This document shows positions 20,128-26,306 of a DNA stretch of 42,378 nucleotides, piece by piece. Position 1 is the stretch's first letter, and each line of letters begins with the position of its first letter. A program made the position numbers and the translations under genes. The stretch is from Escherichia phage LF82-23. Under the pieces are notes generated by a model. The model searched no databases. It saw only the letters and a program-made list of their open reading frames with translations, and was not told the origin of the DNA. Location: sequence record PV660458; one strand, given 5' to 3'.

Positions 20128-20434
20128 CGAACCGATGGTAGACCTCAAGCTCATGGTTGTTGACCACGACCATGTGAGTGGGGAGATTCGCGGTGTCATC
20201 TGCCGCTGGTGTAATGCTCAGCTCGGCAAGGTAGAGAACTCTGCCAACCGAGCGAAGCGCCAGCGCACAGTTGACGACTGGCTGGACAGCGCCATCGAGT
20301 GGCGACGTAAGCAACACACTGGTCTGATGTACCCAACGCACAAGACCGAGGCAGAGAAGAAAGCGGCGACAGCCGAGAGACGTAAGAAGGCGGCAGCCGC
20401 GAAAGCGCGAGCCTTAATCACTAAGGGGAAATGA
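20102..20434 (+). CDS. endonuclease VII-family (Holliday-junction resolvase-like) protein
   Basis: Motif CPCPLC...VVDHDHVSGEIRGVICRWCNAQLG; start chosen at ATG 20102 (GGAAG upstream); the ORF extends upstream to 20042, overlapping the exonuclease. Confidence 0.65.
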   Translation: MGCPCPLCNEPMVDLKLMVVDHDHVSGEIRGVICRWCNAQLGKVENSANRAKRQRTVDDWLDSAIEWRRKQHTGLMYPTHKTEAEKKAATAERRKKAAAAKARALITKGK

Positions 20435-21558
20435 TGACCAAGTTAACTAATCACCAACTCAAAGAAGACATTGCCGAAGGGCTTGGCACCAAGGCCATTG
20501 CTGAGAAGCACGACATGACCGAGAGCGCCATTCGATACCGGAAGCGCCAGCTTGCCAAGAGCGGCTGGAGTCCTGAGCACGACATGACGAAGGAGGTGCC
20601 GGAGCCGTATGCGGTGAAGGGTACGTCCACGCTGTACGATAAGGACGGCAACGTTGTCATGCAGTGGGTGAAGACAGCACTCGACCGTGAGCAGGAGCTG
20701 GCGCTGCTGCAAGAAGCTGTCGATGCTATTAGCGAGAGCATCACCCCGGAAGCTGCCCGACCGTACGCCGGGGGCGCGGCACCTGCTGAGCTGCTGAACC
20801 TGTTCGTGCTGACTGACTACCACCTCGGTATGCTGGCATGGGCAGAGGAAACTGGTGACGACTGGGATATGAAGATTGCGGAAGACCTGCTGGTTAAGTG
20901 GTTCTCGGCAGCGATTGCCAGTGCGCCGCCAGCACAGGTTGCCATCTTCGGCCAGCTCGGTGACTTCCTGCACTGGGATGGGTTGGATGCAGTAACGCCA
21001 TCGAGTGGTCATGTGCTTGATGCTGACACGAGATTCCAGAAGCTGGTGCGTGTGGCTATCCGGGCGCAGCGCCGCATCATTGGTATGCTGCTGGATAAGT
21101 TCCCGCAGGTTCACGTGGTGTGTGCCGAGGGCAACCACGACATGGCCAGCTCAATCTGGATGCGCGAGCTGCTGCATGTCCTGTACGCCGACGAGCCGCG
21201 TGTCACCGTTGACCGCAGCCCTGACCCGTACTACTGCTATGAGCATGGCGAGACGGCGCTGTTCTTCCACCATGGTCACAAGCGTAAGGCAGAACAACTG
21301 GAGACTGTACTGGTCGCCAAGTTCCGCGAAGTGTATGGCCGAACCAAACATGCGTATGCACACGTTGGCCACCTGCATCACAAGAAGGTACTGGAGTCTG
21401 GTGTCATGGTTGTCGAGCAGCACCGCACGCTGGCGGCGAAGGATGCCTATGCCTCTCGTGGTGGTTGGCTGAGTGAGCGCAGCGCGAGCGTGATTACTTA
21501 TCATGCCCGGTACGGTGAGGTCGCACGATTCACCATTAGCCCGGAGATGTTAGAGTGA
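20431..21558 (+). CDS. calcineurin-like metallophosphoesterase with N-terminal HTH domain
   Basis: Ordered motifs TDYH, GDFLHWDG, GNHD, HHGH, GHLH fit the metallophosphatase signature D-x-H / GD / GNHD / H / GH-x-H; N-terminal KAIAEKHDMTESAIRYRKRQL looks HTH-like. Confidence 0.65.
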   Translation: MMTKLTNHQLKEDIAEGLGTKAIAEKHDMTESAIRYRKRQLAKSGWSPEHDMTKEVPEPYAVKGTSTLYDKDGNVVMQWVKTALDREQELALLQEAVDAISESITPEAARPYAGGAAPAELLNLFVLTDYHLGMLAWAEETGDDWDMKIAEDLLVKWFSAAIASAPPAQVAIFGQLGDFLHWDGLDAVTPSSGHVLDADTRFQKLVRVAIRAQRRIIGMLLDKFPQVHVVCAEGNHDMASSIWMRELLHVLYADEPRVTVDRSPDPYYCYEHGETALFFHHGHKRKAEQLETVLVAKFREVYGRTKHAYAHVGHLHHKKVLESGVMVVEQHRTLAAKDAYASRGGWLSERSASVITYHARYGEVARFTISPEMLE

Positions 21559-21779
21559 CGAGAACACTGTACCAAGAAGATGTGGTGCAGCTCAAAGAGG
21601 ATGGCCTTTCCATTGAGTGGGAGGCCAACACTCAGGTCGAGCTGTATAAGGATGGCACCGTCTGCATTTCGCAGGACGGTGAGGAAGTCTGGTTGCCTTG
21701 GGCATATGTCCGGGATATTATTTTCGCTCTTGAGGAAGCACACGATGCACATGAAAGACACCGTAGTAGTAGACCTTGA
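21555..21779 (+). CDS. hypothetical protein (74 aa), GTG start
   Basis: GTG overlapping upstream stop (GTGA) with GGAG 10 nt upstream; overlaps next gene by about 35 nt; uncertain. Confidence 0.35.
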   Translation: MTRTLYQEDVVQLKEDGLSIEWEANTQVELYKDGTVCISQDGEEVWLPWAYVRDIIFALEEAHDAHERHRSSRP

Positions 21780-22272
21780 CGGCACGCTGGCTGATGGCCG
21801 TTGGCGTTTACACCTGCTGCCTCCACCGGAGCGTCGGCACCTTGATGAAGCGTGGGCCGAGTTCAACTTGGCTGGCGCTGACGACCCTGCGTTTCAGGAC
21901 ACGATTGATATTGTGAACGCTCTGGCCCTCACGTATCGCATTATCATCCTGACCGGACGCGGAGCCGTGGCCCGTGAAGTAACCGAGCAGTGGCTTGACG
22001 AAGCTGGTGTGGTTTACGACAAGCTAATCATGAGAGAGATTGGCGACTGCCGTAAGGACACGGAGATGAAGCTGGCGGCGCTGGAGGATATCGGCATCGA
22101 GAACATCGTCTGTGCTTTCGATGACCTGCCCCACATCGTGGACTTTATGCGTGGCCTCGGCATCACGGTTTATGAAGTGACCCGGTATGAGGACAATCAC
22201 GAGTATGTTCACGCAAATGCTAAATACGATGGCGCTGATTCTAAGGTCGATGGAGGTAAGGCGAATGGGTAA
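21745..22272 (+). CDS. HAD-superfamily phosphatase (DxDGT motif)
   Basis: N-terminal VVVDLDGTLADG (HAD motif I); GAGGAAG 6 nt upstream of ATG 21745; ORF-track start 21580 rejected. Confidence 0.6.
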   Translation: MHMKDTVVVDLDGTLADGRWRLHLLPPPERRHLDEAWAEFNLAGADDPAFQDTIDIVNALALTYRIIILTGRGAVAREVTEQWLDEAGVVYDKLIMREIGDCRKDTEMKLAALEDIGIENIVCAFDDLPHIVDFMRGLGITVYEVTRYEDNHEYVHANAKYDGADSKVDGGKANG

Positions 22273-22843
22273 GAAAGGTCAGAAGTTTATCTTAGACCCG
22301 ACACGCAACTGGGGCACTGGTACGCTGCTGAGCGACATTGCTGAGCAAGGTATCATCCTGACGTATGACGAGCCGTACGATGTGCCGAACGACAGCCGTG
22401 ACTACTACACCTGCGTCAAGGATGGCACGACCCACCTGCTGGTGTTGGAACCCTACGAAGTGAAGGAGGTTGAAATGTCCTTTATCCCGAACGACCCGTA
22501 TGACCCTTCCAGTGATGTTGAGGTGGCCGTGGTCAAGAGCGCCGGGCCGGGCGGTATGAAGTTCGACGGCGGCAAGCCCCGCATGTCTCTGCTGTTCGAC
22601 GGCTGCCCAAATGCACTGGAGGCTGTGGCCAGCGTGCTGACCTTCGGCGCTGAGAAGTATGCAGCTCACTCGTGGCAGACTGTACCGGAAGGTGAGGAAC
22701 GCTACAAGTCAGCATTGCTCCGGCACCTGACGGCGGTGGGCAAGGGTGAGGAACTGGATAGCGAATCCAACCTGCATCATCTGGCGCACGCCGCGTGCAA
22801 TGCGCTGTTCATTCTGGAACTCGAATTAAGGAAACGTAAATGA
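22265..22843 (+). CDS. hypothetical protein, possible all-alpha NTP pyrophosphohydrolase (MazG-like / dATP-dGTP diphosphohydrolase-like) domain
   Basis: C-terminal KFDGGKPRMSLL...FGAEKYAAHSW...LLRHL...GEELDSESNLHHLAHAACNALFILE resembles that family as I recall it; GGAGG 8 nt upstream of ATG 22265. Confidence 0.35.
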   Translation: MGKKGQKFILDPTRNWGTGTLLSDIAEQGIILTYDEPYDVPNDSRDYYTCVKDGTTHLLVLEPYEVKEVEMSFIPNDPYDPSSDVEVAVVKSAGPGGMKFDGGKPRMSLLFDGCPNALEAVASVLTFGAEKYAAHSWQTVPEGEERYKSALLRHLTAVGKGEELDSESNLHHLAHAACNALFILELELRKRK

Positions 22844-23154
22844 GTCGTTATCAAAGAGCCGTTGACGACACGGTGGTTGACCATAAGGTGTGCGGTGCCT
22901 GCCACGGCAGCGGCACCTACCGTGGCATGTTGATTGGTGGGCAGGTAGTCCTGATGGATTGCGAAGCCTGCGGCGGTACGGGTACTAATGACCCGGCACT
23001 GCAACATTCTGTACTGAGTGACTTAGGCCAGCGCGTACAAGCGCAGCCGGGATATGACGAGCCAAGCAAGCCATCGTATGGTGTGGGTATCGTCGAGCAA
23101 TACGCCGAAGACGGCAAGCTGATTGAGCACCTGAGCAAACAAGTTAAGGAGTAG
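22840..23154 (+). CDS. zinc-ribbon protein with DnaJ-like CxxCxGxG repeats (104 aa)
   Basis: CGACHGSG and CEACGGTG motifs; ATGA overlap with upstream gene. Confidence 0.5.
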   Translation: MSRYQRAVDDTVVDHKVCGACHGSGTYRGMLIGGQVVLMDCEACGGTGTNDPALQHSVLSDLGQRVQAQPGYDEPSKPSYGVGIVEQYAEDGKLIEHLSKQVKE

Positions 23155-23156
23155 TC

Positions 23157-25589
23157 GTGGATTTACTTGCAGAGCAGATTCGACTTGAAGAAGAAGCGCG
23201 AGCCAGACACCGCGAGGGCTGGCTGGATAATATCAAAGAGGCGATGGCCAGTGGCCGCGCCGGGTCGGTGCCGTTGCTCCAGCGTATGATGGTTGAGGCT
23301 TATCCTCTGGTCGAAGCTGCGATGCAAGAAACCCTGAACGAAACGACCCGTGGGTATGGTGCGCAGTACCGGACGTACATGCGTGAGATTGGCACCAAAG
23401 CGTGTGCCTCTCTCGCACTGAGCATGGCGGTGTCCGGTGCTGCGTCGGAGCAGGCGGTACTCAGCCTGCTCAAGAGCATGGGCAAGGCACTGATGGCTGA
23501 GGTGGTGTACCTCCGGGCGAAGCAGACCGGGCCACAGCAGGCGGCGTACATGGAGCGCGTTAAGCAGGATGTGAAGAAGTCTCGCTCGAAGTCAGCGAAC
23601 CACGTCTACAACAAAGCGCGTGCGTCGGCGGCGAACGTTGGGGTGGAGATTGATGTGCTGCCGCAGCGTGCGCTGATTACCATTGGCAAGCTGATGATGA
23701 AGTGCGTCGAGCCAACTGGTCTGGTGTCCACGATTCGCGTCGGCGGCAACCAGCGGCAGCGCGGTACGGCACACTTTGCACTGCATGAGGATGTGCTGGC
23801 TACGATGAACGACTGGCTGGACATGCCGCGTGCTGATGGCATGTGCTGCCCACCGCTGATTATCCCGCCGAAGCAGATTGCGCCGAACGGTCGCAGCGGT
23901 ATGTGGCATTCGGATGGGCAGGCGGCGATGTACCGGGTCATGAGTCGCATGAACCACAAAGGGTATCGTGCGTTGAACGTTGACCCGACCCCCGTTATAG
24001 AGCCGTGTATGATGCTCAGCAGCGTTCCGTACCGAGTTAACCCAATGGTACTGGAGTTCCTGCGAACGAACCGTACAGGCGTTATGGGGCTGCCTGTGCC
24101 GCCTCGTGAGCCTACACTTCCGTTTACCATCCCCGCTGGTGTGAGCTTCGCGCAGTACATCAGCAAGTTCCCACCAGAGATGCAGCAGCAGATGGACGCT
24201 GAGGCTCATGAGTACAAGGTGAAGACTCGCTTGTATTACAATGAGTTGCGTAAGTTCACATCGCAGATGCTGGCGCTGAACGGTGCAGTCAAAGAAGCAG
24301 ACAGGTACGCCCAGTATGATAGGATTTATCTCCCGACTTACGCCGATACGCGGGGCCGAATTTATTATTCTTCGACCCTTAACCCTCAGTCTATCGACGC
24401 GGTGCGAGCGCTGCTCGAACTTGCTGAACCAGTGGCTCTCGGAAGTGAGGGGCTGTTCTGGCTCAAGGTTCATGTTGCGAATTGCTTCGGCTACGACGCA
24501 ACCGACTTCGATGACCGGGCGGCGTGGACGGACAAAACACTCCCCCGACTACGTGAGGCGTGCCGTCTTCCAGAGGCATTTGATTCGTTCTGGTCAGAGG
24601 CCGATAGCCCTATCTCAGCGTGGGCTGCATCTGTTGAACTCATTCGAGCTATCGACAGCGGAAGTCCTGAGACTTATCCCTGCCGAGTGGTTACGCAATG
24701 GGATGCTACATGTTCAGGTCTCCAACACCTCAGCGCAATGCTACGAGATGAAGTTGGGGGTGCTGCTGTCAATCTTATCAATAGCGTGGGGCGAAAGGCA
24801 GACATATATCTCAAGACGGCAGCAGCGGCGATGCAGGCTCTTGAAGATAGTGAAGCGCAGTCACCGACGCAGATGGGTACGTGGCTTGTTTCAATCGGCA
24901 TTGTACGGGCGATGGCTAAGAAACCAGTGATGACGTACGTGTACGGGGCAACCCGGCACGGGATGGTGGACTACTACTGCCTGTACCTGCGTGAGAACCG
25001 GGTCAAGCTACCGGACGGCAAGAGCCTGCTGGAGTGTGCGCAGTTCATCGCAGAGTTCATGTGGAATGCAATCCCTCGCGTTGTGCCGAAGGCGGCAGAG
25101 CTGATGGCGTGGTTGCAGGCTATCGCGGTGGAGGCGGCAGCCAACGGCGAGTACGTGGAAATCATTGCACCGTCAGGGTTGCGGGTGGTTAACCTGTACC
25201 AAGCTAGCAAGGAGACGATGCTCAACAACATCAACCTCATGGGTATCCACAGCATTAAGCTGCGCGAGTATCTGGACAAGCCGGACGGCAGGAAGTGTGC
25301 CGCTGCGATTGCTCCGAATTTCGTACACGCCATGGATGCCAGCCACATGATGAAGGTGCTGTGGGAGATGTGGAATAACGGGGTGTACATGGTATCCATC
25401 CACGATTCGTTCGGGGTGGCGGCTGCACATGCCGGGCTACTTCACAAGGTCATTCGTGAAAAGTTCGTGCAGATGTACGAGCAACATGACCCAATTCAAC
25501 AACTTGCTGTACGATACAATGCTGTTGCACCTGAACGTGGCAATCTGGATATCCAGCTTGTGAAACAATCAAGCAAGTTTTTCTGCTAA
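23157..25589 (+). CDS. single-subunit DNA-directed RNA polymerase (T7-like)
   Basis: [25 protein letters not shown] and VSIHDSFG match T7 RNAP catalytic segments ([20 protein letters not shown], HDSFG); GTG start with AAGGAG 5 nt upstream. Confidence 0.9.
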   Translation: [810 protein letters not shown]

Positions 25590-25593
25590 TAAA

Positions 25594-25645
25594 TAGTGAT
25601 ATGTATCATTGACTTAAATGAAAGTGTCTATAGTGATATGTATCA
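25594..25645 (+). promoter_or_regulatory. repeat cluster downstream of RNAP gene: TAGTGATATGTATCA x2 flanking conserved 16-mer ATGAAAGTGTCTATAG (candidate phage promoter / origin)
   Basis: Direct repeats at 25594-25608 and 25631-25645; 16-mer at 25618-25633; location corresponds to the promoter/origin region after gene 1 in T7. Confidence 0.4.
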
Positions 25646-25886: not shown

Positions 25887-26306
25887 ATGAAAGTGTCTAC
25901 TATGGGAAATACATCACACACGACGATGCCACTCGACATTCGCCGTGCTGTGGCCGAAGGCATTCAAGCTGAGCGGCCATGGTCAGACCTATCTCCCGAT
26001 GTGATTGTTGACAGCATGTACGAGGCCACCGCCTCCGGTTGTGTTGACGTTTACATCACTGACGATGACGGCAGCCTCATGGCTGTTGCTCACATCGGCA
26101 GGTTATTCGATATTCATGTGGGTGAGATGGTGGTCGTTATGGCCTCATACGTCTGGCCCCAGTACAGAAACCGTGGAGTGATGCGTGCCATCCTCCGTGT
26201 ACTCAAAGACGTGGCCCGTTCTGCGGGTGTACGTTGGTGCGGTTACTCCCATATGGTGCGGCCTTACGTTCAGGAGTACCGCTTCATTGATTTGGAGAAA
26301 CCGTAA
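25887..26306 (+). CDS. hypothetical protein (139 aa); weak acyltransferase-like resemblance
   Basis: Start overlaps third copy of the conserved motif (ATGAAAGTGTCTACTA); segment YRNRGVMRAILRVL only loosely GNAT-like; start uncertain. Confidence 0.4.
   Translation: MKVSTMGNTSHTTMPLDIRRAVAEGIQAERPWSDLSPDVIVDSMYEATASGCVDVYITDDDGSLMAVAHIGRLFDIHVGEMVVVMASYVWPQYRNRGVMRAILRVLKDVARSAGVRWCGYSHMVRPYVQEYRFIDLEKP

Follow-up and report, generated by a model that had tools for sequence, protein, structure and literature searches.

Escherichia phage LF82-23 (sequence record PV660458; the whole 42,378-nucleotide stretch analysed is called the window here) carries, directly upstream of its RNA polymerase (RNAP) gene, three consecutive genes for a HAD phosphatase, a protein ending in a DUF5664 pyrophosphatase domain, and a small zinc-hairpin protein. 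The explanation that fits them best, and that we hold with moderate confidence, is that they are translationally coupled middle (DNA-metabolism) genes in which a phosphatase of the T4 polynucleotide kinase (Pnk) type and the DUF5664 pyrophosphatase form a coupled pair, accompanied by a zinc accessory protein. The genes are ordinary members of known families and are partly annotated already, and the DUF5664 family was biochemically characterised in 2026. What goes beyond annotation is the strong conservation of the HAD-DUF5664 pair, a single natural fusion of its two members, and a tiny zinc family occupying the slot of a host RNAP inhibitor; these are leads, not a new type of system.

The three open reading frames (ORFs) lie on the plus strand and overlap one another, as a reading of the bare sequence (the sequence-only reading) had described. 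The HAD gene (21745-22272) shares 8 nucleotides (ATGggTAA) with the middle gene (22265-22843), which in turn shares 4 nucleotides (ATGA) with the zinc-hairpin gene (22840-23154); the GTG start of the RNAP gene (23157) follows 2 nucleotides past the TAG stop of the latter. Shine-Dalgarno-like sequences (GAGGAAG, GGAGG and AAGGAG) stand upstream of the starts, embedded in the preceding genes. Promoter-like and terminator-like matches between 19000 and 26600 show no excess over shuffled expectation, so the block resembles one translationally coupled unit. Ratios of nonsynonymous to synonymous substitution rates (dN/dS) against the related phages megetsur and J8-65 are 0 and 0.08 for the HAD gene, 0.08 and 0.18 for the middle gene, and 0.21 and 0.24 for the zinc-hairpin gene, values that mark all three as genuine genes under purifying selection.

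A Pnk-type phosphatase and its DUF5664 neighbour

The 175-residue HAD protein is, judged by its residues, a catalytically intact homologue of the 3'-phosphatase half of T4 Pnk. It matches PF25109 (HAD_PNKP) at E 1.2e-14 with 55 bits (cut-off 27.6) over profile positions 2-139 of 143, and phrog_415 at E 8.8e-55; motif I, D10-L-D-G-T14, is encoded at 21772-21786. Its sequence relatives in the PDB are the phosphatase domain of Pnkp1 (4xrp, E 1.2e-7) and T4 Pnk itself (5uj0 and 1ltq, the latter at E 0.017), and a profile of 14 family members aligns with T4 Pnk residues 160-298 at an hhalign probability of 97.7% (E 1.7e-12). In a MAFFT alignment, T4 D165, D167, T169, R176 and S211 correspond to D10, D12, T14, R21 and T70 of the window protein (the T4 Ser being Thr here), and R213, D254, K258, D277 and D278 to R72, D105, K109, D126 and D127. 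Every active-site residue of the T4 phosphatase is thus kept in the window protein and in 10 orthologues, including D165, D167, R176, R213, D254 and D278, which are reportedly essential in T4. The resemblance to the T4 3'-phosphatase proposed from the DxDGT motif is therefore well founded. With T4 Pnk (PseT; 1LTQ) and Pnkp1 (4XRP) the protein shares the HAD fold, the DxDGT nucleophile, motifs I-IV and the counterparts of T4 R176, R213 and D254.

The two differ in that the window protein lacks the N-terminal P-loop kinase. It contains no P-loop and no kinase Pfam match, and its start is equivalent to approximately T4 residue 158, coinciding with the start of the T4 phosphatase domain. The GenBank label 'polynucleotide 5'-kinase/3'-phosphatase' is consequently half wrong, and kinase-less HAD proteins are labelled 'polynucleotide kinase' across GenBank and RefSeq phage records. 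A further difference is a 17-residue insert after motif I ('HRLHLLP...W.EFN.A') that characterises the HAD family and is missing from T4. The segment following motif I aligns weakly with the T5 protein Dmp (hhalign probability 75%, E 2.4e-5, over 50 N-terminal columns only). Both proteins begin with 'DLDGT...HR', but their pairwise match (BLASTP E 0.053) is confined to motif I; Pfam finds no family in Dmp, and the rest of that protein is not detectably similar to the window HAD protein. The insert and this weak alignment indicate that substrate specificity may differ from that of T4.

The HAD family is found in 1251 of 50,697 phage records. It extends to siphoviruses of Kagunavirus and Drexlerviridae and includes Pap of phage P1; the siphovirus and P1 genes adjoin those of a calcineurin-like phosphoesterase and a P-loop protein. 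Another homologue, with 41% identity in the family alignment, is gp57 of Escherichia phage Rao1 (L091 3947-5099), whose gene lies directly upstream of gp58, the deoxynucleoside monophosphate (dNMP) kinase R1DNK, which has been experimentally shown to trigger Kongming immunity. The gp57-gp58 arrangement resembles a split phosphatase and kinase, with the kinase acting on mononucleotides.

The middle protein (192 residues) consists of an SH3-like beta-barrel (residues 1 to about 92; 22265-22540) and a four-helix, all-alpha DUF5664 domain (residues 97-190; 22553-22834) that matches PF18909 (dGTP_diPhyd_N) at E 4.6e-33 with 113.6 bits (cut-off 27). The fold is like that of solved members of the all-alpha nucleoside triphosphate (NTP) pyrophosphohydrolase, or MazG, superfamily. 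Both residue and fold comparisons thus uphold the earlier suggestion that the C-terminal half resembles such enzymes; PF25109 and PF18909 both score above their curated cut-offs. The Pfam scan gave no match to PF03819 (MazG). The canonical MazG metal motifs (EExxE/ExxD) are not evident in the alignment, and identity to the superfamily member AF0060 (PDB 2P06) is 14%. Other acidic residues and histidines are conserved (D101, E162, D165, E167, H154 and H172), and the active site may therefore be built differently. A PDB sequence search with the middle protein returned nothing beyond a spurious repeat hit to a designed Kelch-like protein.

The closest functional guide is a stand-alone DUF5664 protein of Arthrobacter phage Wayne, which converts dATP, dUTP and dGTP to dNMPs, in this order of preference, with a kcat of 0.48 s-1, a Km of 20 µM and a kcat/Km of 2.4e4 M-1 s-1 on dATP; products were analysed with Mn2+ and kinetics measured with Mg2+ (Poubanne et al., NAR 2026; PMC12884076). 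The same study describes MazZ of phage SH-Ab 15497 as a DUF5664-DUF550 fusion, and reports a dAMP hydrolase, DmtZ, resembling nucleoside deoxyribosyltransferases (NDTs), encoded near the DUF5664 gene of Wayne (PMC12884076). The Wayne protein (ALY10775.1) has 198 residues with PF18909 at 98-195, an architecture matching that of the window protein, and the two are 43% identical over 77 residues (BLASTP E 8e-11). Residues R106, K131, Y132, W137, Y147, R153, H154, E162, D165, E167 and H172 are invariant in an alignment that includes Wayne, and the R, K-Y, W, R-H and GE..D.E..H positions are likewise shared with MazZ. In both families, then, the homologues retain the catalytic Asp and Glu residues. 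The N-terminal domains of Wayne and MazZ, by contrast, are unrelated to that of the window protein. This part varies generally: homologues have unrelated barrels or Cys-rich segments in its place, or lack it altogether, many being only 100-110 residues long and consisting of the domain alone.

DUF5664 is present in 809 phage records, the majority from podophages of 40-49 kb that infect Vibrio, Pseudomonas, Klebsiella, Xanthomonas and Pectobacterium. Among enterobacterial podophages its conservation is exceptional (72-78%), a feature that sets the window type apart from Wayne and MazZ. Between the window (22553-22834) and Klebsiella phage SU552A (L087 18020-18316) the identity is 72%, an unusually strong constraint for a small hydrolase; it drops to about 45% in sampled Pseudomonas phage records.

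That the two proteins belong together is indicated first by gene order, beginning with the 8-nucleotide overlap of their genes and the Shine-Dalgarno-like sequence that lies within the upstream one. Among 80 IMG/VR loci encoding DUF5664, a HAD gene stands immediately upstream in 30, with overlaps or gaps of -73 to +4 nucleotides, and an RNAP gene lies downstream in all 30. Some paired loci come from genera with an RNAP only 28-32% identical to that of the window; there the DUF5664 domain retains 72-78% identity and the HAD protein 48-56%. A whole-genome comparison with SU552A (Drulisvirus) places the DUF5664 domain (72%) and the HAD protein (49%) first and second among the window proteins, ahead of the major capsid protein (48%), DNA polymerase (41%), the large terminase subunit (TerL; 38%) and RNAP (31%). 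A pair located between DNA-processing nucleases and the RNAP gene thus outranks capsid, polymerase and terminase in conservation.

A search with a concatenated HAD and DUF5664 query revealed one natural fusion, P0155, a 267-residue protein that joins PF25109 to PF18909 without the SH3-like domain. It is encoded at 5001-5804 of L092, a diverged, AT-rich contig from Logan SRR7122376, directly after a metallophosphoesterase gene and upstream of a 65-residue ORF and an RNAP gene. Both alternative frames at the junction are riddled with stops, which makes a simple frameshift artefact unlikely. Adjacency, conservation and fusion together argue for a common process in which both enzymes work.

In some DUF5664 loci lacking the HAD gene, a different ORF overlaps the DUF5664 start. 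It encodes DUF7768 in L018 (3157-3486), L035 (3109-3438) and L036 (3178-3507), and DUF4406 in L038 (2023-2367) and L044. We take DUF4406 to belong to the NDT clan. DUF7768 has no PDB relative, and its comparison with the NDT-like DUF4406 gives an hhalign probability of 0.2%, the profiles being shallow; with DUF7768 unlinked to the NDT fold, a positional replacement of the HAD gene by NDT-like enzymes is limited to the two DUF4406 loci. These loci suggest that various dNMP-processing partners may fill the slot upstream of DUF5664. No functional study of the HAD-DUF5664 module was found in the literature.

A zinc-hairpin protein in the slot before the RNAP gene

The 104-residue product of the third gene carries two motifs, C18GAC21HGSG25 (22891-22914) and C41EAC44GGTG48 (22960-22983), after which come a conserved 'LQxxVLxDLGxRxxxQPGY' tail and a variable C-terminus. 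Its four Cys are invariant in 10 of 10 homologues. The CxxCxGxG zinc ribbon recognised earlier is thus confirmed as far as the motifs go, which all homologues keep, but the epithet 'DnaJ-type' comes down to a shared motif: the match to PF00684 (DnaJ_CXXCXGXG; E 2.5e-4, 21.7 bits) falls below the 32.7-bit cut-off, and a PDB profile search yields only sub-significant hits to the C-terminal zinc finger of UvrA (E 0.04) and to DnaJ (E 0.6). The protein shares the CxxCxGxG hairpin with DnaJ and UvrA and differs from them in lacking an ABC ATPase and, by the Pfam scan, a J domain. With two motifs instead of the four of DnaJ, a single zinc site is predicted.

The family, which matches phrog_6060 (E 1.5e-15), is tiny. 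It comprises 9 clusters in a collection of 5.8 billion proteins, and a search of 1.84 billion returned 17 cluster representatives at E<=1e-3, about 7 of which share the tail motif, the remainder being generic CxxCxGxG proteins. Its members are confined to the Bonnellvirus/LIMEzero clade (L004-L009).

The position of the gene offers the only clue to its role. In phiKMV, a 48-residue ORF separates the DUF5664 gene (gp25) from the RNAP gene and shows the same ATGA overlap, and in LUZ19 this slot is occupied by gp25.1. According to Ceyssens et al. (2020; PMC7552054, citing Klimuk et al. 2013), Gp25.1 binds the beta' subunit of RNAP and shuts off host transcription. The zinc protein resembles this T7 Gp2-like protein in the location of its gene between those for DUF5664 and the phage RNAP and in the overlapping stop and start codons, and a regulatory, protein-binding role is the best guess that this match permits. 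Gp25.1 differs in lacking CxxCxGxG motifs. The idea that Gp25.1 might be a DUF5664-Gp2 fusion was rejected, gp25 (DUF5664) and gp25.1 being separate genes in phiKMV and LUZ19.

Other genera carry different small ORFs in the slot before the RNAP gene. Two conserved ones occur in L014, L015, L020, L039 and L041: the first, of about 49 residues, reads 'SCSDWCRxKYxxAVERGD..YMEMYxLWLxRE' (for example L020 3805-3954) and recurs in a shorter form of about 38 residues in L011, L018, L023 and L036, and the second, of about 60 residues, reads 'MAGQRELSFDEDKPTD...RRTIAxKTxIYL' (for example L020 3900-4082). Neither belongs to a Pfam family, and both are candidates for lineage-specific regulators.

Possible functions of the pair

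By homology, the HAD protein would most likely act on 3'-phosphates, taking them off nucleic-acid ends or nucleoside 3'-monophosphates or bisphosphates by way of an aspartyl-phosphate intermediate at D10. The DUF5664 domain, following the Wayne enzyme and MazZ, would most likely be a divalent-metal-dependent enzyme splitting (d)NTPs into (d)NMPs and pyrophosphate, and the variable SH3-like barrel is probably a targeting or adaptor module that directs it to a partner or to nucleic acid. As a coupled pair in nucleotide-pool or nucleic-acid-end processing, the two may act jointly, alongside the neighbouring exonuclease, endonuclease VII and metallophosphoesterase. The zinc protein would be a clade-specific accessory that binds one zinc ion through its four Cys in a DnaJ/UvrA-type hairpin; the position it shares with Gp25.1 hints at a regulatory, protein-binding role. 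The sequence-only reading had likewise pointed to remodelling of nucleotide pools or nucleic-acid ends, which is reasonable for the two enzymes and finds no support for the zinc protein.

Several observations weigh against this interpretation. The adjacency is confined to one viral lineage with rigid synteny, so the 30 paired loci are not independent, and the fusion is a single protein on a single contig. HAD proteins are also found unpaired (in siphoviruses and P1), and DUF5664 proteins often are, which implies that each can work alone. Wayne is a Z-genome phage and its enzyme shares only the 77-residue match described above, and what it prefers as substrate may therefore not carry over; purZ, datZ, dpoZ and NDT-like genes are all missing from the window phage, which is thus not a Z-genome phage. 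Lastly, the zinc protein has no detectable sequence relation to Gp25.1 (hhalign probability 0.4%), and its AlphaFold2 model is of low confidence (predicted local distance difference test, pLDDT, 63) and gives no meaningful Foldseek match.

Among the alternatives, sequential degradation has a modest chance of being correct. The DUF5664 domain would convert unwanted or signalling (d)NTPs to monophosphates, and the HAD protein, as a mononucleotidase, would carry these on to nucleosides, sanitising the pool and possibly countering host defence in the manner of T5 Dmp, a 5'-deoxyribonucleotidase that defeats Kongming immunity by removing dAMP. Such a pathway would account for the conserved adjacency and the P0155 fusion, and it accords with the DUF4406 and DUF7768 genes in the HAD slot, DUF4406 echoing Wayne DmtZ through its presumed NDT-like nature; DUF7768, however, could not be linked to the NDT fold. 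The insert after motif I aligns weakly with Dmp, but the pairwise match goes no further than motif I, and the catalytic core with its counterparts of the T4-specific R176, R213 and D254 fits a 3'-phosphatase and not Dmp. Rao1 cuts both ways: its HAD homologue gp57 is encoded directly upstream of R1DNK, yet the phage is still sensitive to Kongming and is rescued by T5 Dmp in trans, which argues against efficient 5'-dAMP phosphatase activity in the HAD family. The degradation of deoxynucleoside triphosphates (dNTPs) also seems costly to a replicating phage.

A bolder proposal, which we regard as unlikely, is that the pair works as a two-step machine, taking the phosphates off a nucleotide or RNA end that bears both kinds, and that the zinc protein is the Bonnellvirus replacement for Gp2/Gp25.1. 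Candidate targets include alarmones, for example (p)ppGpp or (p)ppApp, tRNA 3'-pyrophosphorylated by toxSAS/CapRel-type defences, and nucleotides linked to defence, for example dITP or ddhNTPs. If true, the two-step machine would amount to a module for host takeover or counter-defence that is widespread among phiKMV-like phages and has gone unrecognised. Recent work has shown phage nucleotide hydrolases to have a central part in base replacement (Z genomes) and in evading nucleotide-sensing immunity (T5 Dmp against Kongming), and the substrates of the pair would tell whether a common podophage module joins that arms race.

A role in T4-like repair of RNA or tRNA is highly improbable. The HAD protein would heal the ends that host anticodon nucleases leave with a 3'-phosphate or 2',3'-cyclic phosphate, in preparation for resealing, as its homology to the phosphatase domains of T4 Pnk and Pnkp1, both RNA-repair enzymes, might suggest. 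Against this stand the missing 5'-kinase domain and the lack of a partner: no ligase or P-loop kinase Pfam domain is present in 10 other ORFs of at least 113 residues (nine early or middle and one downstream of the RNAP gene), and the megetsur genome annotation lists neither. Within these ORFs and that annotation, T4-style heal-and-seal RNA repair is therefore not encoded. Removal of the 3'-phosphate would also prevent ligation of the RtcB type.

It is scarcely credible that the database labels are right and that the middle protein is a T7 gp3.5-like 'endolysin that inhibits RNA polymerase' and the zinc protein a lambda Q-like antiterminator, for although PHROG attaches such labels to phrog_5033, phrog_2252 and phrog_6060 and they have been copied into many GenBank and RefSeq records, the middle protein has an SH3-like barrel and a four-helix bundle in place of any amidase or lysozyme domain, RefSeq itself names phiKMV gp25 'dATP / dGTP pyrophosphohydrolase', and the zinc protein has no Pfam match to a Q family at E<=0.1. 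The terms 'endolysin' and 'endolysin; inhibits RNA polymerase' are attached to DUF5664 proteins in many Vibrio and Pseudomonas phage records in particular; the latter, which originates from PHROG 5033 and 2252, is unsupported, being contradicted by the domain content, and the 'anti-termination protein Q-like' of PHROG and RefSeq is equally unsupported for the zinc protein. These two propagated labels, together with 'polynucleotide kinase' for the HAD protein, are corrected here.

Genome context and neighbouring genes

The window genome belongs to Bonnellvirus, the genus of Autographiviridae in which megetsur is classified. Its region 21000-25600 is 95.9% identical over the full length to Escherichia phages megetsur and mellemsur, and equally so to Enterobacter phages BHUENT7 and SS-2025; other Bonnellvirus phages, including aldrigsur, J8-65 and Lidtsur, show 82-91% identity. 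Genes in megetsur and J8-65 run in the order DNA polymerase, exonuclease, endonuclease VII, phosphoesterase, small ORF, 'PseT-like phosphatase', 'putative phosphodiesterase', one or more small ORFs, RNAP and portal. The layout is of the phiKMV type, with the RNAP gene closing the DNA-metabolism block. The J8-65 record notes, for the counterparts of the three genes, a similarity to LIMEzero gp30, gp31 and gp32. The earlier statement that they fall outside the minimal T7 core holds in that they are absent from T7, with the qualification that the first two, which GenBank already annotates in part, are conserved among phiKMV-like Autographiviridae. A PADLOC search with four proteins gave zero matches, and an NCBIfam search gave weak, generic HAD and DnaJ matches only.

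The RNAP gene itself (23157-25589, plus strand) encodes a single-subunit phage enzyme (PF00940, E 5.5e-83; phrog_414, E 6.5e-213). On the other side of the three genes lies that of a 375-residue metallophosphoesterase-like protein (20431-21558, plus strand; 'DNA repair exonuclease', LIMEzero gp27-like), with a strong match to phrog_704 (E 3.3e-146) and a weak one to Pfam Metallophos (E 0.023); a PDB sequence search found no relative. Its first 60 residues or so, read by eye, look like a helix-turn-helix. This type of gene abuts a HAD or DUF5664 gene in L092, L039, L041 and phiKMV (gp24), and its recurrence beside them in distant phages suggests that it may share their functional block. Its stop overlaps (GTGA) the start of a 74-residue, LIMEzero gp29-like ORF (21555-21779, plus strand), which overlaps the HAD gene by 35 nucleotides. 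This ORF, called 'hypothetical' in megetsur and J8-65, belongs to no PHROG family and has a single, probably spurious Pfam match (IN_DBD_C, 22 bits); its dN/dS against J8-65 is 0.18.

At the junction of the pyrophosphatase and zinc-hairpin genes (22838-22843), megetsur and its relatives carry a 181-nucleotide cassette. Its product in megetsur is a hydrophobic, membrane-like protein of 68 residues (megetsur_32; L001 4841-5047), and a hydrophobic ORF of 61 residues occupies the same slot in L008 (3799-3984). The window cleanly lacks the cassette, with the ATGA overlap left in its place, an instance of the gain or loss of a small gene between phages of about 96% identity.

Downstream of the RNAP gene, a 139-residue GNAT acetyltransferase is encoded on the plus strand at 25887-26306 (PF00583, E 6.3e-5). 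Its gene is the syntenic counterpart of a J8-65 gene annotated as similar to LIMEzero gp36, and PMC7552054 lists LIMEzero ORF36 as a homologue of Rac of phiKMV and LUZ19, the trigger of cleavage of the host RNAP alpha subunit.

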